Below, piece by piece: positions 1,809 to 26,747 of a DNA stretch of 64,000 nucleotides. The stretch is from a virus. Its lineage: Duplodnaviria > Caudoviricetes. The notes under the pieces were generated by a model. The model searched no databases, was not told the origin of the DNA, and saw only the letters and a program-made list of their open reading frames with translations. The translations under genes and the position numbers were made by a program. The DNA is taken from the IMG/VR virus record IMGVR_UViG_3300009431_000002, positions 1 through 64,000 of that record, one strand, 5' to 3'. The stretch's first letter is position 1, and every line of letters starts with the position of its first letter.

Positions 1809-4800
1809 CTACCCGACCATGGCCCGGGACTTGAGCGCCTTCACATAGGCGAGGACGCGGTCACGCCGCGCGATACGCTGATCGAGCGACACTGCAATCG
1901 GCTCCTCCTTCCCGCGTCCATCGACACGCGCGAAGGTCTGATCCTCCCTGGACAGGTCCACAGGCTCACCGGCCTCGTCGGTCAGCAGTCCGTGCAGGTT
2001 CTCCAGCGGGGCCACGGCGCGGCTGTGGAACCCCTCGTCTGGCGAGCCGTCGAATGGGAGGCCGAGCTCAGCGTACGTCTTCCGCCGCCCCATCTCGTCG
2101 TACTCCAGCTCGGCGCCTCCGAGGATGTCCTTCAGCGTCGCCACGGGCCGGTGGATGTAGTTCCACGCCATCTTGTCGGCGCCGCCGTGCTCCTTGGCGT
2201 AGCCGTAGACGATGGCCAGGGCGTCGAGCATCTGCGCCACGGAGACTGTCCTCGATGCGTCGTCGCCGAGCTGCACGGTGCTGACGACGTCGGCGTACTT
2301 GCTGTTGGGGTCCACCACGAACCGCTCCTGGTCCGTCGCCACGGTCTTCCCCTCTGCCTCCACACCGCCGAGGAGCTCGGCGTCCTCGTCCGACCCAGGC
2401 ACGGGCACCGGGCGCTCCGGCTCCCCGACCTCACGCGCGGCGAAGACGTGCTCGTCGACCAGCGACCCCGTCCCGAAGAACACTTGGTAGATCTTCTCGC
2501 CGATCTCCTTGTTGCCGTAGTGCGGGGACACCCACGGGGGACGCAGCGCCTCCTCGGCCGGCATGTCGAACGACAGCGTCCCGAGGACCTCGGCCGCGCG
2601 AGCCGGGTCGATGGTCTCCGTGACGACCACGGTGTCGTAGTAGAAGTACCTGGCGCCGCTGCCCGACTCCTCGTACCGGATGACGCCGTCCGACCGCAGG
2701 CTGTGGATGGGGCCCTGGACACCTGTGTCGCCGATGCCCTTGGCGCAGTCGTTGCCGCTGCCCTTGGTCACCCGCTCTCCTGTCTCGTCGTCCATCGGCT
2801 CGACGCCGAGTACACGGTAGGGGGTGCCGGGCCCCGCCTCGTACACCGGGTCAGGCGGCACGACGCCACCGCTGCCGAAGATGGACCCGTCGGCCGTCCG
2901 CGGGAAGATCGGGTTGGGCGTCAGGTCCTTGAGCAGGTCCAGCAGGTCCTGGTGCCCCGCCTCCAGGAGCTGGTCGTACTGGAGGATGAACACGACGGCC
3001 GTCTGCTCGCTGGCCGCCACCTCCTGCTCGGTGATGGCCATGTTGAGGTACTCGTCGTCCGTGCCGTCCGCGGAGCGGTGGGCGCGGCAGAAGTTGAGGA
3101 CCCCCGAGGTGTAGCCGCCCTGCTGGTCCGCGACGATCTCCATGCTGCTGCACAGACCCAGGAACTGGGTGGGGAAGCGGATCTCCTGACCCAGCCCGGC
3201 CTCGACCGCAGGCACGTAGCCAGATCCAACAGCCTCGATCAGCTCCCGTTGGCTCACGCCGTCCGGCACGTGCATGGGCTTGTCGAGGATGGCCATGGGG
3301 AAGCCGCAGACCGGCAGGTAGTTGAACTGCCCGCTGAACTGGATGACCCTCGGTGCGAACCGGAACCGGAAGAAGTTGTGGTGCGCCACCCTCTGGGCCC
3401 AGCTGTTCTGCACGTCCTTGGCGTTCTCGGTACCCGCTGTCTGCGAGGCCACGTAGTCCCGCTGGGCCTTGTTGGCGTAGAACTTCACCTCGCTGACCGA
3501 GTGCATCTTCGGCACGATGCCGGAGTGCACCTCGTGCGGCATGATGATGGCCGACTGCGTGTAGTACGAGCTCCCGGCCAGGTCGAGCATCCCCGACAGG
3601 TCGGGCGCGTAGTAGAAGTAGTCGAGCAGCTCGTCCGGCCCGATGAGCTCCATGCTCGACCGGAGCTGGTAGCGCGTGCACTCCCGCAGGAGCTGCCGGT
3701 TGAGCGAGAACGAGTTGTAGTGCTCTGGGAACAGGACGTTGCACCGCGGCGGCGCAGCGAACCAGATGTCGGGCCGGAAGATCTGCGTGTTGAGCCGTGC
3801 CCCCGAGGTGTACTCGACCGTCTTGCTCCCCGTCGTCGTGTGGTTGAGGGCTGCCTCGATGGACGCCTTCGCCAGCTCGAGCTTGCGGAGCGCGGTCTCG
3901 GCCTTCTGCGTCGTCGGCGACCCCGTGGTCGACGCAGCCGTTCGCGCCTCGACGATGTCCGCCAGCGCCATCTCGACGTCGGTGTAGGGCTGCGTCCCGA
4001 TGTGGTCGTCGAGCCCGGGGATCACGGTGTTGTCCATGTACCGCCAGATCCCCCACACCATCGACGCGATGTCGATGTCCTCCTCCGTGGGCGTCGCCGG
4101 CGCCGACTCGTCCGTGAACGAGGTCACAGACTGCTCGACGGACGCCGTGCTCGTGGTCAGCGGTGCACCCACGCTCCACAGCACCGTACTCTCGTCTTCG
4201 GGCTGGCTGCTCGCCTCGATGGCGGCGACGACGTCCTCGATGTCGGTCTTCACCTTCGTGAGGTGGCCGCGGCTCTCGCCCGTGATGGTGGACGCGTAGG
4301 TCGGCTCGTCGTAGCTGCCCGGCTCGCCGCCCGCCGTGAAGTACGGAGCGGGGCACGGGACCATCGAGTACGTGATGTACTGGCCCACCATCCGCAGGAT
4401 GTCGCGGATGGACATGAGCCCGCCACCGCCGCCGAGCGAGTTGGTGAGCCACTGGCTGAAGACCTTGCGGTTGAACAGGTCGATGCCGGTGGTGTCATCC
4501 AGGTCCGTGGCGATCTGCCACAGCAGCTTGTTGCGCAGCTCCTCGACCGTGTTGAAGTCGTTCACCCCCTTGAAGTCGCCGGGGATGCCACCGACCGCCT
4601 CGATGACCGACACAAGTCCAGCGAGGAGCCCCTGGAGCTGCTTGAACTCGTGGAACTTCGGCGTCTTCCGCTGGAGCAGGCTGCCGACCACCGACGCGGG
4701 GTCGTTGATGATGTCGTCGAACAGGTTGGTGTTGGCGCCGATCATCCGGGCGTTGCTGCCCATGATCCCGGACCCGCGGGGGCCGTAGGTCAGCATGAAC

Positions 4801-6857: not shown

Positions 6858-9800
6858 CTACCCGCTCCTGGGCTGGCAGTCTGCTCGGTCAATTCGGTGA
6901 CCTCCCGCAGCTTGGGCAGCTCCTCGCCGACGGCGCGCACGAAGATGGTGTTGGCCTCCATCGCTCGTTCGATGGACTGGGCCAGCTCGACCACGTCCCC
7001 CGACAGCGTACCTGTCCTGGCGCCTCCTGTGGAGGCTCCAGAGATCGCGCCACGCTCCTGCGCCACCGCGAGCATGTCAGCGAGCTTCTGGCCCTCGGTG
7101 TCCGAGATGCTCAGGTCGCGGATGCTCTTCTCCAACTCGTAGTACAGCTCTCGCCCTATGCGGCCAGCAGACTCCGGGCCGCCCTCCCGAGTTTCCATCG
7201 ACCGCATGAGCCCCTGCACGTCGACGCCGCTGCGGCTGGCGATCTGGGCGAGCACCATATCCCTGTTGGTGCCGCCGATACCGCCGAGCCTCCGTTGGCC
7301 CTGCTGCATGCGCATGCCGACCCCAGCGGCGAGGACCTCGCCTTCCGGCCCGAGGGAACCGAGGTAGGCCATGACGTCGCCGCGTGCTCCCGACCCCATC
7401 CCGCGCATGAGTCGCGCGAGATCCGCGCCGCCGGGTCCGGCAACCTCGCCTGCGGCCATCGCCGCGGCATCCTCAAAACTCAAACCCTCCAGCTCGCTGG
7501 CGTAGGCCCGAATCTCACGCAGGGTCGCCTCGTCGACCCCATGCCGCGCCGCGTCCTCCTTCGAGATGCGGGCGCTGAGCGCGGCGCCCTGGCGGTTGGC
7601 CTTGTTCTGGAATTCCGTTACGACCTCGGTGGCCTCGTGCATGCCGGCTTCGGTCATCATCGCCTTGACCTGGTCCGGGTCGTTATCCTGGATGATCCGC
7701 TGGAGCGTCCTCAGTTCCTTCTGCGTCAGGTCTCCGATTTGCTCTCGGAAGCGCCGGAGCTCCTGCTTCTCCCCGCCTGTGATGGTCCCGTCCTCCTCCT
7801 TCTGGAGCAAGTTCCGGTACTTGGACGTCTGCTGGAACTTGTCCCCGACAGTCGTACTGGACCCGAGCCACGACATGACCTGCGTGCTGCTGTCGCCTGT
7901 GAGGAGGTCGCGGACCTTGCCGCGCATCGGCGCGTGCATCATCCCCGCGCCGACCGTGTACGCCCATGGCGTGAGCGACGCCTTCGCCGCCTCCCCGACG
8001 CTCTCGCCGGAGATCAGGCCAGCGTACATGCGCGTCATCCAGCCGCCGCCGTACTGCACCGCCGTCATCGCCGGCGCCACGAGCGACATCGCCGGCCCCG
8101 TGTACGCCCAGTTCCCCAACGACCCCCGGCCCAAGGTCTGGACGGCCTCGTCGATCACCTCTTCCCGCCCGCGCGCCGCCATCAACCCCATGGCCCCGAC
8201 GCCGTAGTCGTCGTCCGGCAGGGTGACGCCGCCCTGCTGCGCCGCGAGCCGGACGATGTCCTCCCGCTCCTGTCGAGGTCGTCCCTGGAGGTACTCCTCG
8301 TAGAAGCCTGTGCCTCGAAGCCCGCGCTGGACACGCCGCGCACTCATGTTCCCGGCAGTCCTGGCACGAATCGACCAACGGGCGCCCCCCAACGCCTCAC
8401 CGAACTCCGAGCCCATCTGCGAGAGGTCGACGTTCCGCCCGAGACCGACGTCGGCGGCGGTGAGGCCACCGAGGAAGCCTGCACGACGCTGCTCCAACTG
8501 CTGGAGTTGCCCGAACTGCCCCTCGGTGATCTGTCCCCGTCGGAGCTGGCGGTTCGCGGCACCCATCCGACCGAGCCCGCGGCCAGTCGACATCGCGGTG
8601 AGCCCCGCGACATCGCCCATGCCCGTCCCCATCATCCAGGCCTGGCGCTCCTGCTCGGTGATGGTGACGTCGTACCGTCCCCACAGGCGGTCGAAGAAGC
8701 GGTCAGACCGCTCCTCGATGCCGCCGCCCAGGCCCTGGCCCAGCTCCTGCAGGGGGTTGGAGATCTGCGCCTCCCACTCCCGGCCCACGTTCTGACGCCA
8801 CCAGCCCCGGATGCCGCGCTTCCGCTGCTCCGCCTGGTTGATGGCGTTGTCCACGGCCTGCAGGGTCCTCTCACGCTGCGTGCGGCGGATCGTCGCTGCC
8901 TCCCGAGCCATCTCCACCATCACCTCGGCCTCGGCCCTGTTGAGGTTGGTGAAGCGCTTCATCAGCAGCATCTCGATGTCTTCTTCGGCGCCGGCGATGC
9001 CCCGGCTCCCTGCCACGTCGCGGACGACGGACTCGATCAGCTCCGGGCCGGCCTGCTCCATCAGGTTGCCGCGGAGCAGCTCCTCGTTGGCCACGAACGA
9101 GACCCTGGAGCCGCGGCCCCCACCAAGCCGCCGGCTGGCCTCTCCACGGACGTTGCGGATGTTGATGTCGCCGGCGCGCAGCCGAGCGATCTGCCCCATG
9201 TCGACTTCGCCAGTGTACCGGCCGTCCTCGACCTCGCCGGTGGCGAGCATCATGGCCCTGCCCACAGGGGTCGTGGCGAACCGAAACGCCTGCTCGGCCA
9301 TCCGCATCGACAGCTGGTTGTAGGCCGCCGGGCCGGTCATGCCGCCCGTGGCCTCCATGATGGCCTCTTCGGAGATGGCCCCGGACTGTACGGCCGCGCC
9401 GAGAGACCCAGCGAGTCGGGTGGTCAGGCCGGCGCCTGTCGCCCGCCGGGATCCAAAGGCCTGTGCCAGAGAGGCTCCGCCCCGCTGCAGCTGGTTGAAC
9501 TGCTGCGTCCCGTAGCCCATGGTCCCGAGGACTTGGCGCTGGACCGTCGCACCCATCACGTCCTGGGCCGTGTAGAAGCCCGACCGGCGCATGTCCTGGA
9601 AGAAGGGGATGGCCTCCTGCAGGGAGACCCCCATCACCGACGCCACCTCCTTGGTCGCGCTGACGATGTCCTTGAACTTGCGCTGGAAATCCTGGGCGTC
9701 TCGGACGGCCTGCATCATCCCCATCTCGGGGAGTGCGGCCGCGATGCCGGCGAGGTCGCGGATGTCCATGTTCATCTGCGTGCCGATGTCACGCATCATG

Positions 9801-11349: not shown

Positions 11350-12208
11350 GCACGTCGAGCCGGACGGTGGCTGGGGCAAGCCCACGGGTACGCCACCGCC
11401 CGACTGGGCCGCGTGGCGGGAGGAGCAGGGGCACTACGTGGTCCAGCTCCGCAACGGCAGCGAGGAGGTCTACGGCCTCGTCACGGTGGTGCTGCTGAGC
11501 ATCCGGAGCGCCTTCGCCCCCGCCACCGAAGAGGAGATGCGGGCGATGGAGCCCACCCAGCTCGGCGACGAGCTGCGGAAGGCCACCTCCCTCTACGACC
11601 TCGTGATGATGGCCCAGGACCCGGAGTACCGCGAGCAGGTCTCCCCGGACAACATCGCGTTCCTCAAGCGCTTCAATCTCGTCGAGGCCGACGGGCGCAT
11701 GCACGGGTCCACCCGCAACATCGTCCGCTCGGCGTTCGAGATCGGCGCCAAGGGCCAGATGCCGGTCCAGAACAATCCGCTGCTTCGCAGGGGCGACGTG
11801 CCCGACCGTCGGGAGGACAAGTCGTTCGAGGACCCGCTGATGCGGATGATGCGGACGACGCCGAGCCCCGTCGCCGACCCCATCCCGGAGGTGCCGGGGG
11901 ACCAGCGGCCCGTCGCGGGCGAGGTGTTCGTCGGCAAGGCCTCCCGCGGCCGCGTGGTGGTGCTGCCGCCGTCGATGAACCCGAGCATCTTCCCGCACCA
12001 CGACACGGTGGTCTACACCAACGAGAAGTGGCCCACGGAGGAGCACCTCCAGTCCCACCAGCCGCACACCATGCGGACCGCGGTGTTCCTGGACACGTTC
12101 GACCGCGTCGAGGACGACGTCATCGGCACCGAGCAGCTGCGGGAGATCGCCAGCCGCTTCGGCGACCCCAACCAGTGGATCCACGCCGACAAGGAGACCG
12201 AGGAGTAG
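11327..12208 (+). CDS. Hypothetical protein
   Basis: Start reassigned to MTDSNGTEH; strong GC3 bias. Confidence 0.7.
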   Translation: MTDSNGTEHVEPDGGWGKPTGTPPPDWAAWREEQGHYVVQLRNGSEEVYGLVTVVLLSIRSAFAPATEEEMRAMEPTQLGDELRKATSLYDLVMMAQDPEYREQVSPDNIAFLKRFNLVEADGRMHGSTRNIVRSAFEIGAKGQMPVQNNPLLRRGDVPDRREDKSFEDPLMRMMRTTPSPVADPIPEVPGDQRPVAGEVFVGKASRGRVVVLPPSMNPSIFPHHDTVVYTNEKWPTEEHLQSHQPHTMRTAVFLDTFDRVEDDVIGTEQLREIASRFGDPNQWIHADKETEE

Positions 12209-12235
12209 CCTGAGTCCCTCCAGCCGGAGGGGCCA

Positions 12236-12258
12236 GGGGCGCGCCCGACGCGCGCCCC
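12236..12258. terminator. GC hairpin between convergent units
   Basis: GGGGCGCGC-ccgac-GCGCGCCCC followed by a T-rich stretch on the plus strand. Confidence 0.5.
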
Positions 12259-12272
12259 GCTTATCTTAGAGT

Positions 12273-12349
12273 TGGTGCGGGTGCTCGGGATCGAACCGAG
12301 GACCTCCTGGTCCCGAACCAGGCGCGCTACCAGACTGCGCTACACCCAC
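12273..12349 (-). tRNA. tRNA-Pro(CGG)
   Basis: Cloverleaf; CCTGG-TT CGG GA-CCAGG; CCA encoded; G1:C72. Confidence 0.93.
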
Positions 12350-12352
12350 ACC

Positions 12353-12429
12353 TGGGGCCGACGCTCGGAATCGAACCGAGAACCTGCTGATTACGAGTCA
12401 GCTGCTCTGCCTGGTTGAGCTACGTCGGC
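12353..12429 (-). tRNA. tRNA-Thr(CGT)
   Basis: GCTGA-CT CGT AA-TCAGC; CCA encoded. Confidence 0.95.
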
Positions 12430-12430
12430 G

Positions 12431-12507
12431 TGGTGCCCCGACCCTGAATTGAACAGGGGACCCCGGACTTATCAGGTCCGTGCTCTACCGGACTGAGCTA
12501 CCGGGAC
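12431..12507 (-). tRNA. tRNA-Ile(GAT)
   Basis: CGGAC-CT GAT AA-GTCCG; CCA encoded. Confidence 0.95.
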
Positions 12508-12556
12508 ACGGGAACTATTCAGTTGTGCATAGGTGCGCCCACCCGGACCGGGCGGG

Positions 12557-12592
12557 CTAGATAATGGTCGTAGGTGGTGTCAGCCAACGCAT
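12557..12592 (-). CDS. Leaderless leader peptide MRWLTPPTTII (Ile/Thr/Pro operon)
   Basis: ATG CGT TGG CTG ACA CCA CCT ACG ACC ATT ATC TAG, 6 nt after TG-C-TACAGT; hairpin GCCCGCCCG-GTC-CGGGTGGGC at the stop. Confidence 0.8.
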   Translation of the reverse strand: MRWLTPPTTII

Positions 12593-12598
12593 GAGGGC

Positions 12599-12607
12599 AC
12601 TGTAGCA
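12599..12607 (-). promoter_or_regulatory. Extended -10 promoter TG-C-TACAGT
   Basis: Identical motif at 14181-14189; no good -35. Confidence 0.6.
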
Positions 12608-12622
12608 CAGGAGGTAGGGTTG

Positions 12623-12676
12623 TGGTAGCCCGACCCGGACTCGAACCGGGGACCTTCGGTATCTAGCCGAAGATCC
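12623..12676 (-). pseudogene. 3' half of a tRNA (anticodon arm remnant, T-arm, acceptor strand, CCA)
   Basis: TTCGG-CTAGATA-CCGAA GGTC CCCGG-TTCGAGT-CCGGG TCGGGCT A CCA; overlaps the stop codon of the 12663 ORF; no matching 5' acceptor strand. Confidence 0.7.
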
Positions 12677-13424
12677 CTTCCACGCGGCCGGCTCGACCCG
12701 ACTGAGTCAGGGTCTTCCCCATGATGTGCCGGGCTTGTCGTTGGGCCATCTCGCCCGCCTGCTCTGGTGACATCTCCGGTAGTTCCTTGGCGCCTCGGAG
12801 GAATCTCCTCTTCATGGCGGCCGGGACCCTCTGGCCGCTTTCCAGGAATTGATGAGCGCGGGGGTCCTTGAACACCTGCGCGAACTGCTGACGGAGAAGC
12901 TCGGTTTCCCCGGTAGCCTCTCTCATTTCCCGCAGTCGCCGGGCAGCGTGCCTCAAGCTCTTGGCTTGCCCCTTCGGAGCGGCCAGACGGTTCAGGAGGT
13001 TCAACTCCTCTACCAGCACTCCGGGGCTGAGGTGAAGACTCTTGCCTAGAGGTACGGCCTTCCTCTCCAACCCCTCATGCAGCGTGAGGAGTGTCTTTGG
13101 GCCACGGCCTTCCACCCCAGGGAGCAGGCCCTTTGCCGCAGACGGGCCGTAGAAGATTCTCCCGGCGTGACGCCCGTACCTGGACTGGAGAGCCTGCACC
13201 AGCTCTTCTGGGATCATTCCCCGCTGCCACTCGAAGAACTCTGGATGCTTGAGGGACTTGCGGATGTGGGCCTTCGTCGGGATCAGCGTCGCTCCCAGCT
13301 GACCCGCCAGCCCCCTAGACCTGGTAGGTGCCAGTCTCCTGGCTGCCGCGTACAGCTCCTGAGCGGACGCAGCCTCCTTGATCTTGCAGAGCTCGTCAAC
13401 GAAAGCCGGGAAGGAGGGACTCAC
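12663..13424 (-). CDS. Hypothetical protein with N-terminal FVDELCKIKEAA motif
   Basis: ORF track; codon usage less GC3-biased than flanks; contains LHEGLE segment. Confidence 0.7.
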   Translation of the reverse strand: MSPSFPAFVDELCKIKEAASAQELYAAARRLAPTRSRGLAGQLGATLIPTKAHIRKSLKHPEFFEWQRGMIPEELVQALQSRYGRHAGRIFYGPSAAKGLLPGVEGRGPKTLLTLHEGLERKAVPLGKSLHLSPGVLVEELNLLNRLAAPKGQAKSLRHAARRLREMREATGETELLRQQFAQVFKDPRAHQFLESGQRVPAAMKRRFLRGAKELPEMSPEQAGEMAQRQARHIMGKTLTQSGRAGRVEGIFG

Positions 13425-13433
13425 GCTCAGAGA

Positions 13434-13829
13434 CTACCCCACCTCGTAGTCGGCCGTAAAGCGGATACCCTTCTTCTGCCCGTTCTTGGGCGGGGTGATC
13501 CGCAACGCGGCTACGCGGATGGCTACATCTTCTACGGGCACCAGGTAGACCTTGTCCAGATCGGGGCAGTAGACACCGAAGAGCTCGACTTGCCCCCTGT
13601 ACCCCTTCCGCTTCCTGGTGCGGTAATCCACGCTGCAGGGGTCGAACTGCACCGCGCCGTTCCGCAGGCGCCCGGTCTTGCACTGGATGCGCTTGAACTC
13701 CCCGTCGTCGTCCATGACGAGGTCGTACCGTTGGTTGTCCCCGAAGGGCTGGAGCATGACCTTCCCTGCCTTGAGGAGGGTGCCGAGGATCACGCCTTCC
13801 GACTTCTCACCGACTTCCTTGGTGTTCAT
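13434..13829 (-). CDS. PD-(D/E)XK family endonuclease (homing-type)
   Basis: GEKSEGVI...PFGDNQRYDLVMD...IQCKTG; leaderless promoter upstream. Confidence 0.85.
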   Translation of the reverse strand: MNTKEVGEKSEGVILGTLLKAGKVMLQPFGDNQRYDLVMDDDGEFKRIQCKTGRLRNGAVQFDPCSVDYRTRKRKGYRGQVELFGVYCPDLDKVYLVPVEDVAIRVAALRITPPKNGQKKGIRFTADYEVG

Positions 13830-13835
13830 GGGGCC

Positions 13836-13864
13836 AGCGTACCTGAGAGCGTCGGGTAGGTCAA
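13836..13864 (-). promoter_or_regulatory. Promoter TTGACC-17-TACGCT, 6 nt before ATG (leaderless)
   Basis: Read directly. Confidence 0.7.
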
Positions 13865-13874
13865 CCGGAGGTGT

Positions 13875-13950
13875 TGGTAGGTCTGGCTGGGCTCGAACCA
13901 GCGACTTCTGCCGTGTGAAAGCAGCACTCTCCCAACTGAGTTACAGACCC
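13875..13950 (-). tRNA. tRNA-Val(CAC)
   Basis: CTGCT-TT CAC AC-GGCAG; CCA encoded. Confidence 0.93.
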
Positions 13951-13988
13951 ACTGACACCGCTGCTCTCCCTAGCTGAGCTACCGGCCC
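13951..13988 (-). pseudogene. 5' half of a tRNA (acceptor strand + D-arm), truncated
   Basis: GGGCCGG TA GCTC AGCTAGGGA GAGC A GCGG... abutting tRNA-Val; no T-arm. Confidence 0.65.
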
Positions 13989-13989
13989 G

Positions 13990-14066
13990 TGGTGGAGGCG
14001 ACAGGAATCGAACCTGCGACCTGCTGCGTGCAAGGCAGCTGCTCTCCCAGCGTGAGCTACGCCCCC
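13990..14066 (-). tRNA. tRNA-Ala(TGC)
   Basis: GCTGC-CT TGC AC-GCAGC; G3:U70; CCA encoded. Confidence 0.95.
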
Positions 14067-14111
14067 ACGGCGAAGATGTAGATGTAGAGGGTCGCTCCCC
14101 GAACCGGGGAG

Positions 14112-14174
14112 CTAGATCGCGGCCACGACAACTGGCAGCGCGAGGAAGACGGAGAGTCGTGCGAGACGTTCCAT
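14112..14174 (-). CDS. Leaderless leader peptide MERLARLSVFLALPVVVAAI (Ala/Val operon)
   Basis: 6 nt after TG-C-TACAGT; hairpin GCTCCCCG-GTT-CGGGGAGC at the stop. Confidence 0.8.
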   Translation of the reverse strand: MERLARLSVFLALPVVVAAI

Positions 14175-14180
14175 GCCGCG

Positions 14181-14189
14181 ACTGTAGCA
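14181..14189 (-). promoter_or_regulatory. Extended -10 promoter TG-C-TACAGT
   Basis: Identical to 12599-12607. Confidence 0.6.
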
Positions 14190-14193
14190 CAAG

Positions 14194-14269
14194 TGGCGCG
14201 AGCTGTGGGAATCGAACCCACCCAGTTGGTTTTGGAGACCAACTCGCCTGCCTTGGGACATGAGCCCGC
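14194..14269 (-). tRNA. tRNA-Trp(CCA)
   Basis: TTGGT-CT CCA AA-ACCAA; atypical D-arm; CCA encoded. Confidence 0.88.
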
Positions 14270-14271
14270 AC

Positions 14272-14347
14272 TGGAACCCCCGACTGGACTCGAACCAGCG
14301 CACGGCGGATTAGAACTCCGCTGCTCTTCCAACTGAGCTACGGGGGC
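14272..14347 (-). tRNA. tRNA-Arg(TCT)
   Basis: GCGGA-GT TCT AA-TCCGC; CCA encoded. Confidence 0.9.
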
Positions 14348-14404
14348 CGACTTGACTGAACTCCCCTACTTGACCGGCTGCTCAAGCGGCCGGGTTTGGT
14401 CAAG

Positions 14405-14480
14405 TGGTACAGACGTCAGGGGTCGAACCTGAAACCACTGGGGCCACATCCCAGCGCTCTGCCAGTTGAGCTACGTCTGC
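14405..14480 (-). tRNA. tRNA-His(GTG)
   Basis: CTGGG-AT GTG GC-CCCAG; A73 and no encoded G-1. Confidence 0.88.
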
Positions 14481-14483
14481 ACG

Positions 14484-14561
14484 TGGTACCCGCGGGAGGA
14501 CTCGAACCTCCGACCTTCCGGTTCGTAGCCGGACGCTCTAGGTCCACTGAGCTACGCGGGC
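14484..14561 (-). tRNA. tRNA-Arg(ACG)
   Basis: TCCGG-CT ACG AA-CCGGA; CCA encoded. Confidence 0.95.
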
Positions 14562-14564
14562 ACG

Positions 14565-14639
14565 TGACCCCGGCAGGACTCGAACCTGCGACCTCCGCGT
14601 CCGGAGCGCGGCGCTCTGGGTCCACTGAGCTACGGGGCC
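14565..14639 (-). tRNA. tRNA-Arg(CCG), CCA not encoded
   Basis: CCGCG-CT CCG GA-CGCGG. Confidence 0.92.
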
Positions 14640-14651
14640 GGTTGTCAAAGA

Positions 14652-14727
14652 TGGCGGTGCCGCCAGGACTCGAACCTGGAACCAGAGCGTTAACAGCGCC
14701 CCGCTCTAGCCATTGAGCTACGACACC
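14652..14727 (-). tRNA. tRNA-Asn(GTT)
   Basis: GGGCG-CT GTT AA-CGCTC; G1:C72; CCA encoded. Confidence 0.93.
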
Positions 14728-14728
14728 G

Positions 14729-14803
14729 TGGTTGCTGCGCCTGGGGTCGAACCAGGGACCTGCCGGTTATGAGCCGGCTGCTCTACCGCTGAGCCACGCA
14801 GCA
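14729..14803 (-). tRNA. tRNA(CAT), elongator Met more likely than Ile2; not initiator
   Basis: GCCGG-CT CAT AA-CCGGC; lacks the GGG/CCC initiator stem. Confidence 0.85.
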
Positions 14804-14806
14804 TCG

Positions 14807-14879
14807 AGGGTCGACCGGGACTCGAACCCGGATCTCCGGATTAAAGGTCCAGGGCGTTATCCATTACGCTCATCGACCC
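14807..14879 (-). tRNA. tRNA-Lys(TTT), CCA not encoded, C33
   Basis: CTGGA-CC TTT AA-TCCGG; acceptor GGGTCGA/TCGACCC. Confidence 0.8.
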
Positions 14880-14880
14880 A

Positions 14881-14956
14881 TGGAGGGTGGAGGGGGACTC
14901 GAACCCCCAACCGCCGGATTAAGAGTCCAGCGCTCTACCTGTTGAGCCATCCACCC
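14881..14956 (-). tRNA. tRNA-Lys(CTT)
   Basis: CTGGA-CT CTT AA-TCCGG; CCA encoded. Confidence 0.95.
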
Positions 14957-14962
14957 GCAGTT

Positions 14963-15008
14963 CTCCGTCTCCACCTGCCGCCCCTTCGGGCAACAAGTAG
15001 ACACGGAG
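14963..15008 (-). promoter_or_regulatory. Long leader hairpin (putative attenuator element)
   Basis: CTCCGT/ACGGAG, TCTACTTG/CAGGTGGA, TTGCCC-GAAG-GGGCGG; G-U pairs work only on the minus strand. Confidence 0.65.
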
Positions 15009-15022
15009 GGGCGGACGCAGAT

Positions 15023-15073
15023 TTACCTGTGCTTGTTCCAGCGGTGCATGAAGGTGGGTCTGACGAAGGTCAT
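15023..15073 (-). CDS. Leaderless leader peptide MTFVRPTFMHRWNKHR (Lys/Met/Asn/Arg/His/Trp operon)
   Basis: ATG ACC TTC GTC AGA CCC ACC TTC ATG CAC CGC TGG AAC AAG CAC AGG TAA, 6 nt after TACGCT. Confidence 0.85.
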   Translation of the reverse strand: MTFVRPTFMHRWNKHR

Positions 15074-15079
15074 GTGGCG

Positions 15080-15108
15080 AGCGTAGACCAGCTCGAGATG
15101 GAGGTCAA
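15080..15108 (-). promoter_or_regulatory. Promoter TTGACC-17-TACGCT
   Basis: Read directly; same hexamers as 13836-13864. Confidence 0.75.
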
Positions 15109-15111
15109 CGG

Positions 15112-15195
15112 ATCCCGACATGAATCCCGACTTCGTGTCGGGATAGCCCCACGCACGTCATCCGGATCCCGACAGGGGTTGACGACACAGTGTCG
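15112..15195. repeat. Operator-like repeats between divergent tRNA promoters
   Basis: ATCCCGAC at 15112, 15124, 15166 and inverted at 15137-15144; palindrome CGACAC-A-GTGTCG at 15183-15195. Confidence 0.6.
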
Positions 15196-15207
15196 CCGTG
15201 CTGTACT
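15179..15207 (+). promoter_or_regulatory. Promoter TTGACG-17-TGTACT, 7 nt before ATG
   Basis: Paralogous to TTGACA-17-TGTAGT at 18744-18772; -10 is non-canonical. Confidence 0.6.
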
Positions 15208-15214
15208 CCGGCCC

Positions 15215-15271
15215 ATGCACTCCTTCGACATCCAATTCGGATTGTCGCTACAGCTCCTGGGTACCCAGTAG
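15215..15271 (+). CDS. Leaderless leader peptide MHSFDIQFGLSLQLLGTQ (Leu/Gly/Gln operon)
   Basis: Read directly; paralog at 18678-18737; followed by alternative GC hairpins. Confidence 0.85.
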   Translation: MHSFDIQFGLSLQLLGTQ

Positions 15272-15327
15272 TCGCCGCCCCCGTACGCCCGTAACCCCGG
15301 GTAGCCGGGGGCGGGAGAAGTGCGTTT

Positions 15328-15413
15328 GGGAGAGTGGCGGAATGGTAGACGCGCGGGTTTCAGGAGCTCGTGTCCTTCGCGGCGTGGGGGTTCGACTCCC
15401 CCCTCTCCCACCA
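15328..15413 (+). tRNA. tRNA-Leu(CAG)
   Basis: CGGGT-TT CAG GA-GCTCG; long variable arm; A73, CCA. Confidence 0.93.
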
Positions 15414-15592: not shown

Positions 15593-15593
15593 T

Positions 15594-15671
15594 GTGCCGG
15601 GGCGCAAGGCGTCATAGGGAGAAGGGGACGGCCTCGCTCCTGTTTCGCGTGGGGAAACCCACCCCCGGCAC
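15594..15671 (+). ncRNA. Unclassified tRNA-sized structured RNA
   Basis: 9-bp GTGCCGGGG/CCCCGGCAC closing stem, GTGGG-GAAA-CCCAC arm, two inner hairpins; no TTC loop, no CCA. Confidence 0.5.
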
Positions 15672-15673
15672 CT

Positions 15674-18071: not shown

Positions 18072-18485
18072 ATGGACACCGCCAAGATGTACGAGGTCGC
18101 GCTCCGCAACAAGCTCCGGTTCGAGAGCCCCAAGGGCCCGCTGAGCCTGGAGCACCTGTGGGACGTGCCGCTGCGCTCCCGCACCAACTTCAACCTGGAC
18201 ACCATCGCCCGGACCGCCAGCCGCGATCTCAAGGAGACGTCCGAGGAGAGCTTCGTCGCCACGCGCAAGAGCCCGAAGCAGACGCTGGCCGAGGTCAAGC
18301 TCGAGCTCGTCAAGCACGTCATCGCGGTCAAGCTCGCCGAGGAGGAGAAGGCCGAGAAGCGCGCCGACGCCGTCAAGCGCAAGGAGAAGCTGACGGAGAT
18401 CCTGGAGCGCAAGCAGGACGCCAAGTTCGAGGAGATGGACGAGGCCGCCATCCGCAAGGAGCTCGCCGAGCTCGACGCCTCCTGA
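18072..18485 (+). CDS. Phage protein with coiled-coil C-terminus, partner of the 692-aa gene
   Basis: RBS GAGGAG; KLRFESPKGPLSLEHLWDVPL. Confidence 0.85.
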   Translation: MDTAKMYEVALRNKLRFESPKGPLSLEHLWDVPLRSRTNFNLDTIARTASRDLKETSEESFVATRKSPKQTLAEVKLELVKHVIAVKLAEEEKAEKRADAVKRKEKLTEILERKQDAKFEEMDEAAIRKELAELDAS

Positions 18486-18496
18486 CCCCACGCCCT

Positions 18497-18525
18497 GGGA
18501 GGGCCGGCACGCCGCCGGTCCTCCC
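18497..18525. terminator. Hairpin between convergent units
   Basis: GGGAGGGCCGGC-acgcc-GCCGGTCCTCCC. Confidence 0.55.
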
Positions 18526-18537
18526 GTTAGCTCGGAA

Positions 18538-18622: not shown

Positions 18623-18677
18623 ACACGCACTTCTCCCGCCCCCGGCTACCCGGGGTTCGGGCGTACGGGGGCGGCGA

Positions 18678-18737
18678 CTACTGGATACCCAGAAGCTGGA
18701 GCGACAATCCGAGGACTTGGATGTCGGAGACGTGCAT
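18678..18737 (-). CDS. Leaderless leader peptide MHVSDIQVLGLSLQLLGIQ (duplicate Leu leader)
   Basis: 6 nt after TTGACA-17-TGTAGT; paralog of 15215-15271. Confidence 0.8.
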   Translation of the reverse strand: MHVSDIQVLGLSLQLLGIQ

Positions 18738-18743
18738 GGGGGC

Positions 18744-18772
18744 ACTACAGCACGGCCCGCCAAGCGTGTCAA
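18744..18772 (-). promoter_or_regulatory. Promoter TTGACA-17-TGTAGT
   Basis: Read directly. Confidence 0.65.
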
Positions 18773-26580: not shown

Positions 26581-26591
26581 TCAAACCTCTG

Positions 26592-26637
26592 CTCTCCCAT
26601 CCTGCGCCCCTTCGGGGCCAGGACAGGTCACGGAGAG
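26592..26637 (-). promoter_or_regulatory. Long leader hairpin homologous to 14963-15008
   Basis: CTCTCC/GGGAGAG, TCCTG/CAGGA, GCCCC-GAAG-GGGC. Confidence 0.65.
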
Positions 26638-26649
26638 ACGCAGACGCAG

Positions 26650-26712
26650 TTATGCGGAGTCGCTATCGAAGCAATAGGAAGACGATGACAGGAGGGGTGC
26701 AGCGGTGTGCAT
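26650..26712 (-). CDS. Leaderless leader peptide MHTAAPLLSSSSYCFDSDSA (Cys/Phe/Asp/Tyr/Ser operon)
   Basis: ATG CAC ACC GCT GCA CCC CTC CTG TCA TCG TCT TCC TAT TGC TTC GAT AGC GAC TCC GCA TAA, 6 nt after TACGGT. Confidence 0.88.
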   Translation of the reverse strand: MHTAAPLLSSSSYCFDSDSA

Positions 26713-26718
26713 GGGGCG

Positions 26719-26747
26719 ACCGTACCTCAGCCTGTCGAGGAGGTCAA
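26719..26747 (-). promoter_or_regulatory. Promoter TTGACC-17-TACGGT
   Basis: Read directly. Confidence 0.75.

Follow-up and report, generated by a model that had tools for sequence, protein, structure and literature searches.

A short ORF of 11 codons, MRWLTPPTTII, located just ahead of the tRNA-Ile, tRNA-Thr and tRNA-Pro genes of an uncultured virus, is likely to be the leader-peptide sensor of that transcription unit (hereafter unit A) and one of six such sensors heading the tRNA operons of the phage. The production of tRNAs is probably tied to the decoding of the leader's amino acids by the ribosome, because each of the other tRNA operons has a matching mini-gene of its own. Phage tRNA genes are usually seen as static helpers of codon usage or as a counter to host defences that cleave tRNAs, and we know of nothing on how their expression is set. 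If the sensor reading is true, tRNA supply would be a regulated and self-reporting phage function, and leader-peptide attenuation would extend from amino-acid biosynthesis to the decoding machinery. The genome is a useful test case, with six units of three module types that cover every tRNA operon and 19 of 19 amino acids. The units are short, ~150 nt from promoter to hairpin, and suited to reporter constructs, and a design without a classical terminator and antiterminator can reveal what is indispensable to the mechanism.

The short ORF before tRNA-Ile, tRNA-Thr and tRNA-Pro

The window, that is, the whole stretch of 64,000 nucleotides analysed here, is the first 64 kb of the 201,921-bp record of the virus (~202 kb, ~67% GC). 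Scattered proteins are all that isolated phages have in common with this genome, and a search for a WhiB-type marker of an actinobacterial host found none. According to ARAGORN, the genome contains 29 tRNA genes, all of them within 12.2–26.6 kb, and the phage tRNAs cover 19 amino acids. Generic scanning for promoters and terminators was uninformative in the GC-rich DNA of this phage.

Unit A is encoded on the minus strand. Its promoter is an extended −10 element, TGTGCTACAGT (12599..12609; TGn followed by TACAGT), with no good −35 sequence, and the identical 11-mer is found at the leader of the tRNA-Ala/Val unit. The ATG is located 6 nt past the −10 hexamer and opens the ORF at 12592–12557, which reads ATG CGT TGG CTG ACA CCA CCT ACG ACC ATT ATC TAG; no purine-rich Shine-Dalgarno sequence lies upstream of this ATG. 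The remaining part of the interval originally annotated as leader (12593–12607) consists of the 6-nt discriminator and the −10 hexamer TACAGT (12604–12599). The ORF is followed by a GC hairpin with a 9-bp stem, a 3-nt loop and a folding energy of ~−20 kcal/mol (12537..12557), which has no U-tract. In the minimum free energy (MFE) fold it occupies nucleotides 36–56 of the predicted transcript and starts with the G of the TAG codon, so that the initial annotation was right to place its beginning on the final base of the stop. A 29-nt spacer (12508..12536) separates the hairpin from the 5′ end of tRNA-Ile(GAT) (12431..12507), which is followed by tRNA-Thr(CGT) (12353..12429) and tRNA-Pro(CGG) (12273..12349); ARAGORN and Rfam agree on all three genes, and the mini-gene placed ahead of them in the initial annotation is confirmed. 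From the end of the ORF to tRNA-Ile there are 49 nt on the same strand, with no promoter-like site between them. The unit is closed by a 9-bp GC hairpin (12236..12258) held in common with a convergent plus-strand gene that ends at 12208.

The amino-acid content of the leader matches the tRNA genes that follow. The claim that the last seven of its 11 residues are all Thr, Pro or Ile is borne out (T, P, P, T, T, I, I). When the 115-nt spacer was shuffled 200,000 times, an ORF with at least seven terminal I/T/P residues appeared, in any frame of the minus strand, with a frequency of 2e-5. The leader match of unit A is not a chance product. The seven tail codons are all different, and ACA, CCA, CCT and ATT each account for just 2–6% of the codons of their amino acid in phage genes. 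Anticodons with C34 decode NNG only. The codons served by the encoded Thr and Pro tRNAs are therefore ACG and CCG, and apart from these two tRNAs the genome has none for Thr or Pro. Under standard wobble rules, its own operon serves 3 of the 7 tail codons: ACG is read by Thr(CGT) and ATT and ATC by Ile(GAT), as had been proposed. The initial annotation is also right that the encoded Pro(CGG) cannot decode CCA or CCT, and the same holds for Thr(CGT) and two of the three Thr codons, ACA and ACC; by the same rules, none of these four codons is read by any phage tRNA.

Matching short ORFs at the other tRNA operons

Listing of the short ORFs upstream of each tRNA operon revealed that the arrangement of unit A, consisting of a promoter, an ATG, a matching short ORF and a GC hairpin, is present at 5 of 5 tRNA operons and at one duplicated unit, which makes six units. 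In all of them the ATG lies 6–7 nt past the −10 element, the ORF has 11–20 codons and the GC hairpin starts 0–17 nt past the stop codon. Unit B (14094..14189, minus strand) uses the same type of promoter as unit A, TGCTACAGT, and contains the ORF MERLARLSVFLALPVVVAAI at 14174–14112 and a hairpin at 14112–14094, followed by tRNA-Ala and tRNA-Val. Promoter and ORF of unit C (14963..15108, minus strand) comprise TTGACC-17-TACGCT-6-ATG and MTFVRPTFMHRWNKHR (15073–15023), and a 20-bp hairpin (15008–14963) precedes the tRNAs for Lys, Lys, Met, Asn, Arg, Arg, His, Arg and Trp. On the plus strand, unit D (15179..15314) has the promoter TTGACG-17-TGTACT-7-ATG, the ORF MHSFDIQFGLSLQLLGTQ at 15215–15271 and a hairpin at 15275–15314, located before the tRNAs for Leu, Leu, Gly, Gly, Leu and Gln. 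Within this otherwise tightly packed Leu/Gly/Gln operon, tRNA-Gly(TCC) and tRNA-Gly(GCC) are separated by an 81-nt gap (15593–15673, plus strand). Unit E (18635..18772, minus strand) is a duplicate of unit D with the ORF MHVSDIQVLGLSLQLLGIQ at 18737–18678 and a near-identical post-stop module, and lies before a second tRNA-Leu(CAG). In unit F (26585..26747, minus strand), TTGACC-17-TACGGT-6-ATG opens the ORF MHTAAPLLSSSSYCFDSDSA (26712–26650), which is followed by a long hairpin, by the tRNAs for Cys, Phe, Asp and Tyr and, farther on, by three Ser tRNAs.

The match between leaders and operons was quantified on five leaders, leaving out Met1 and the duplicate unit E. At 44 of the 80 positions, the leader has an amino acid for which its own operon encodes a tRNA. 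When the 19 amino acids were partitioned at random into sets of the same sizes (1e6 trials), the mean count was 15.9 and the maximum was 39 vs the 44 observed. The true pairing of leaders and operons was the best among 120 permutations, with the runner-up reaching 33, and each of the 19 amino acids with a phage tRNA is present in its own leader (19/19). The match is confined to the ORF frame, since only 6–16 of 85–90 residues match in the five remaining frames of this DNA. Counted by wobble rules, phage tRNAs can decode 33 of the 44 matching codons vs 30.75 expected from random synonymous choice, and the match is therefore one at the amino-acid level; the matching of individual codons to tRNAs was rejected as the principle on the same figures. 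This result favours a sensing of amino-acid families over a codon-by-codon sensing of tRNAs. The initial annotation had suggested sensing of the amino-acid pool or a loss of other Pro tRNAs, and for the latter no homologous operon was found for comparison. Synonymous codons are also diversified: the 44 positions use 39 distinct codons, vs 34.3 under uniform choice (p = 0.013) and 28.0 expected under the strongly GC3-biased usage of the phage.

Comparison of the units with each other indicated that modules and tails can vary separately. Units C and F have promoter and post-stop region in common and differ completely in their ORF tails, each of which suits its own tRNAs. Units A and B likewise agree in the promoter 11-mer and in placing the hairpin on the stop codon, and have different tails suited to their own tRNAs. 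The duplication that produced unit E from unit D extends from the promoter through tRNA-Leu(CAG). The two ORFs differ by 7 substitutions and one in-frame 3-nt indel, with the GLSLQLLG core of the tail unchanged and both changes in Leu codons synonymous. The post-stop module (~57 nt) differs by 1 substitution and 1 indel and is apparently less diverged than the tRNA copy, and therefore the RNA element past the stop codon is under constraint. The anatomy of the units, the statistical match between leaders and tRNAs, the frame specificity of this match and the conservation of the post-stop module are direct observations on the DNA.

A further common feature concerns the position of the start codon. 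In the entire 202 kb there are only 9 promoters of the type TTGAC-N16-18-TAnnnT, and 7 of these 9 have an ATG 6–7 nt downstream. The seven sites correspond to 4 tRNA leaders and 3 ordinary genes, one of them the PD-(D/E)XK nuclease of the tRNA region. Units A and B use instead their common extended −10 element, TGTGCTACAGT-N6-ATG. In this way, an ATG is found at the predicted (not measured) transcription start of 6 of 6 tRNA-operon promoters. A tRNA operon needs no ATG at its transcription start. The leader-peptide reading of the initial annotation is strongly supported by this coincidence and by the genome-wide leader/tRNA pattern, with translation and the effect on read-through remaining inferred. 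Outside this phage, the promoter–ATG pattern of the C/F type had 98 matches in metagenome contigs, most of them opening into long ORFs, e.g. of LexA-like proteins; therefore, the promoter–ATG geometry marks leaderless genes in nature.

Hairpins, ribosome position and possible read-outs

The leader hairpins all lack a U-tract. The same is true for the strong hairpins behind ordinary genes of the phage (1.3 T on average in the 10 nt that follow), so the leader hairpins could be normal terminators of the phage system. These gene-end hairpins are long GC stems without U-tract, e.g. near genome positions 39739, 129175 and 163183, and another long GC stem of this kind lies past the duplicated tRNA-Leu (window 18380–18537, minus strand). 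The existence of U-tract-less hairpins at gene ends says something about how the host terminates transcription. The unit A hairpin by itself is not exceptional for GC-rich sequence. Folding of the whole leaders gave z values that are not unusual for A (−0.49) and B (−1.13), and unusually stable structures for C (−3.2), D (−4.3), E (−4.8) and F (−2.1). The effect of the ribosome was modelled by constrained folding with a 31-nt ribosome mask. In these masked folds, the hairpin of A, B, D and E was opened only when the A site was placed on the last 1–3 codons or on the stop codon, and in D and E a local alternative hairpin formed once the main one was opened. No classical antiterminator was found in the ribosome-mask folds; unit A had no alternative helix and unit C did not change, its hairpin never being opened by the mask. 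Because the unit C hairpin is out of reach of the ribosome, simple steric attenuation fails to explain all six units. The six ORFs are also rich in C (111 C vs 70 G in 330 nt), whereas phage genes contain about as much C as G. Taking together the anatomy, the match, the folds and the C-richness, a sensor of translation speed that gates read-through into the tRNA genes was therefore adopted as the explanation.

According to this model, host RNA polymerase would start at the A of the ATG, 6 nt past the extended −10 element, and thereby produce a leaderless mRNA. The ribosome would read MRWL and then the seven different Thr, Pro and Ile codons, and would meet directly past the stop codon a GC hairpin without U-tract, such as those found at the ends of ordinary genes of the phage. 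Entry of the polymerase into the three tRNA genes would be set by the position of the ribosome at the time when the hairpin is made. If tRNAs are supplied on demand, slow decoding would keep the ribosome at the end of the mini-ORF, where it would mask the 5′ arm of the hairpin or a C-rich loading site for Rho, and the tRNA genes would be transcribed when the decoding of Thr, Pro or Ile is poor. Supply on demand is the preferred direction within the sensor explanation; it is held tentatively, with slightly less than even confidence, and the opposite logic is not excluded. Translation of the leaders, the point of transcription start and the coupling to read-through are inferences made in the absence of RNA or ribosome data. 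Several observations speak against a sensor: the unit A hairpin has no U-tract, its fold is not unusual and no antiterminator pairing was found; the controlled tRNAs read just 3 of the 7 regulatory codons; and, with an ORF of only 36 nt, the polymerase may be ahead of a ribosome that loads on a 5′ AUG.

Two simpler explanations deny any sensing. The ORF might be an accident of an A/C-rich spacer next to a tRNA promoter and the hairpin an ordinary GC-rich structure, a view that agrees with the tiny size of the ORF, its low third-position GC, the statistically unremarkable hairpin and the absence of relatives that would show conservation. This explanation is hardly credible in view of the shuffle frequency of 2e-5 for leader A, the 0 of 1e6 random partitions that reach the match of the set, the restriction of the match to one frame and the ATG at the predicted start in 6/6 tRNA-operon promoters. 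Alternatively, the mini-ORF might be translated without sensing anything, either because a promoter–ATG module was copied from leaderless genes or because ORF and hairpin form no more than an insulator against read-through coming from the preceding operon. There is no terminator between units C and B, nor between the nuclease cassette and unit A, and in a read-through transcript the AUG would be internal and without Shine-Dalgarno sequence, so that the hairpin would form; the nuclease gene also has the same leaderless promoter type. Neither variant explains why the tails spell the amino acids of their own tRNAs or why homologous modules carry different tails, and this possibility is regarded as very improbable.

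The other two alternatives accept that the leader is read and differ from supply on demand through a masked terminator in what the ribosome does to the transcript. In one of them, the C-rich and weakly structured mini-ORF would itself be the loading site for Rho; a stalled ribosome would block Rho and the tRNA genes would be transcribed, whereas a ribosome that finishes and leaves would expose the site, with the hairpin acting as a pause or as a 3′ protector. The C excess in the six ORFs (111 C vs 70 G in 330 nt) and the lack of U-tracts in the leader hairpins fit such a mechanism, which does not depend on the distance between stop codon and hairpin and thus covers unit C, and for which tnaC and mgtL are precedents. 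Nevertheless, it is judged unlikely, because a Rho loading site of 36 nt would be short, Thr, Pro and Ser codons account for part of the C-richness, the downstream hairpins and tRNAs are poor substrates for Rho, and neither the host nor its Rho has been identified. The other alternative inverts the logic and turns the leader into a sensor of charging capacity: the hairpin would pause or terminate the polymerase unless a ribosome promptly melts it, tRNAs would be made only during fast decoding of all Thr, Pro and Ile codons, and production would stop when an amino acid or synthetase is limiting, avoiding a flood of uncharged tRNA. In its favour are the match at the level of amino acids rather than anticodons (33/44 vs 30.75), the varied synonymous codons, including codons read by host tRNAs only, the location of the A, B, D and E hairpins within reach of a terminating ribosome and the fact that the hairpin is the default structure without a ribosome. 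It leaves the clustering of regulatory codons at the 3′ end unexplained, the unit C hairpin lies beyond the ribosome's reach, and the analogue in phage phiCbK described below has the classical geometry from stall to read-through; the inverse logic is for these reasons considered distinctly unlikely. Three read-outs are consequently kept, namely steric block of a U-less terminator, Rho and inverse pause–release, and both the mechanism and its direction are unproven. More broadly, each tRNA operon might possess an amino-acid-resolved control circuit, in which the mini-ORFs sample many synonymous codons of just those amino acids that the downstream tRNAs carry and so report the decoding or charging of whole isoacceptor families, host tRNAs included, instead of single tRNAs, and the readout is made by U-tract-less hairpins or by Rho; such a circuit is possible and, on balance, rather doubtful. 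Its read-out may be a different solution from the four-segment attenuator, and its logic may be inverse.

Known systems, relatives and neighbouring genes

The phage leaders resemble known attenuators in several aspects. In thrL (with Thr and Ile codons), ilvGMEDA, ilvBN, trpL and hisL there is likewise a 5′ short ORF with a run of the relevant codons, and attenuators of the thrL/ilv type also combine several amino acids in one leader and place a hairpin between leader and regulated genes. Unlike these systems, the phage units regulate tRNAs instead of biosynthetic enzymes, are leaderless and have regulatory codons up to the stop codon; their hairpin has no U-tract, no competing antiterminator was found and they have no Rfam leader match. 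A cmscan search of 12200–15400 with E up to 5 identified none of the Rfam leader families (Thr_leader, His_leader, Leu_leader, Trp_leader, etc.), and its matches were of tRNA type or due to chance only. A second parallel is the mycobacterial 'Cys ribulon' (Canestrari et al., bioRxiv 10.1101/834739), where the codon run of leaderless polycysteine short ORFs is the ribosome-pausing sensor. Both systems place a short ORF at the transcription start (predicted in the case of the phage) and have several independent units with one logic, but in the phage the amino acids sensed would differ from unit to unit. Further, because the downstream genes of the phage are tRNAs without a ribosome-binding site, the mechanism described in 10.1101/834739 cannot apply. 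In tnaC and in Salmonella mgtL and mgtP (PMC3641672), continued transcription is decided, without a canonical intrinsic terminator, by where the ribosome stands on a short ORF of a C-rich leader, as is inferred for the phage. Unlike tnaC and mgtL, the phage sensor would consist of ordinary sense codons with no arrest peptide, and there is no evidence for Rho or for a defined loading site.

A further parallel was found in the Caulobacter phage phiCbK (NC_019405, ~51.3 kb), where a TTGACA-17-TAGGGT-7-ATG promoter opens the leaderless ORF MSKTYRQFVRQIQVVRNIR..., which is rich in the amino acids of the downstream tRNAs (Tyr, Phe, Val, Ile, Gln, Asn, Arg and Gly). In phiCbK the leader is followed by a canonical terminator with a U-tract, the ORF contains an antiterminator copy and its codons are read by phiCbK tRNAs. 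In contrast, the phage described here has U-tract-less hairpins and no antiterminator, its leaders match by amino acid, and every one of its operons has a leader of its own. The phiCbK leader is an independent analogue. The phiCbK stretches concerned are 4082–4144 and 7342–7503 (coordinates within the sequence piece). A second, weaker candidate in this phage consists of MTHLLTRYEREATGLDTTTA and a U-tract hairpin before tRNA-Glu/Asp, and the NC_019405 record annotates 'rho-independent terminators' just upstream of three tRNA groups. Full-text literature searches found no description of leader peptides before phage or bacterial tRNA genes. The view that the phage leaders represent ribosome-mediated attenuation applied to tRNA genes is supported, with the mechanism being inferred.

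No close relative of the phage was found, and therefore there is no cross-genome conservation for leader A. Megablast of 11500–13500 against phage records detected only similarity to tRNA-Pro, and the flanking proteins of 253 and 293 aa have no relatives in IMG/VR or in a set of 5.8 billion proteins except on the phage's own contigs. The second contig of the phage shows 2 base differences, both outside the leaders. Scans of viral contigs for the exact patterns of the unit A ORF and of the C/F promoter module gave nothing, and in a metagenome scan the promoter module was found at bacterial leaderless genes but at no phage tRNA unit. A neighbouring 692-aa protein with a DUF8224 domain has relatives in 20 distant phages (33–54% identity). 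The tRNAs of these phages are not syntenic and mostly scattered singly, and no convincing matching leaders were found in the 20 genomes.

Leader A is separated from the tRNA-Ala/Val unit by a cassette (12623–13864, minus strand) that contains the gene for a leaderless PD-(D/E)XK nuclease (13829–13434, minus strand; PF11645, E 3e-37) and a 253-aa ORF without family (13424–12663, minus strand). The TAG stop of this ORF coincides with the anticodon-loop position of a tRNA-like element (12699–12623), which has a good T-arm and CCA end and a poor 5′ half. ARAGORN reports this element as 'Ser(aga)' and counts it among the 29 tRNA genes, without support from Rfam even at E up to 5. The cassette has the appearance of a mobile nuclease that entered a former tRNA gene. 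The idea that a group I intron divides a tRNA on either side of the cassette was rejected, since Rfam gave no match to an intron and a 5′ half is missing upstream, and homology of the element to another phage tRNA was likewise discarded, none of them being close.

Two observations from other genomes concern similar short ORFs. Six unrelated metagenome contigs carry the same leaderless promoter together with similar short ORFs (MTHFKAFNMTFITWW..., MIHCKAFNTTAIT..., MTQFKSSNVTPVTC and MTHLRAPNMTPTTCC...), which look like a recurring family of leaderless short ORFs of no assigned role. One of the distant relatives, whose DUF8224 protein is 49% identical, has an ORF of 31 codons (13513–13608) that possesses a Shine-Dalgarno sequence and has HQPQPTK as its last residues; a tRNA-like stretch and the tRNAs for Glu, Pro, Gln, His and Lys follow closely. 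No hairpin is evident there, and the ORF may be another matching leader.
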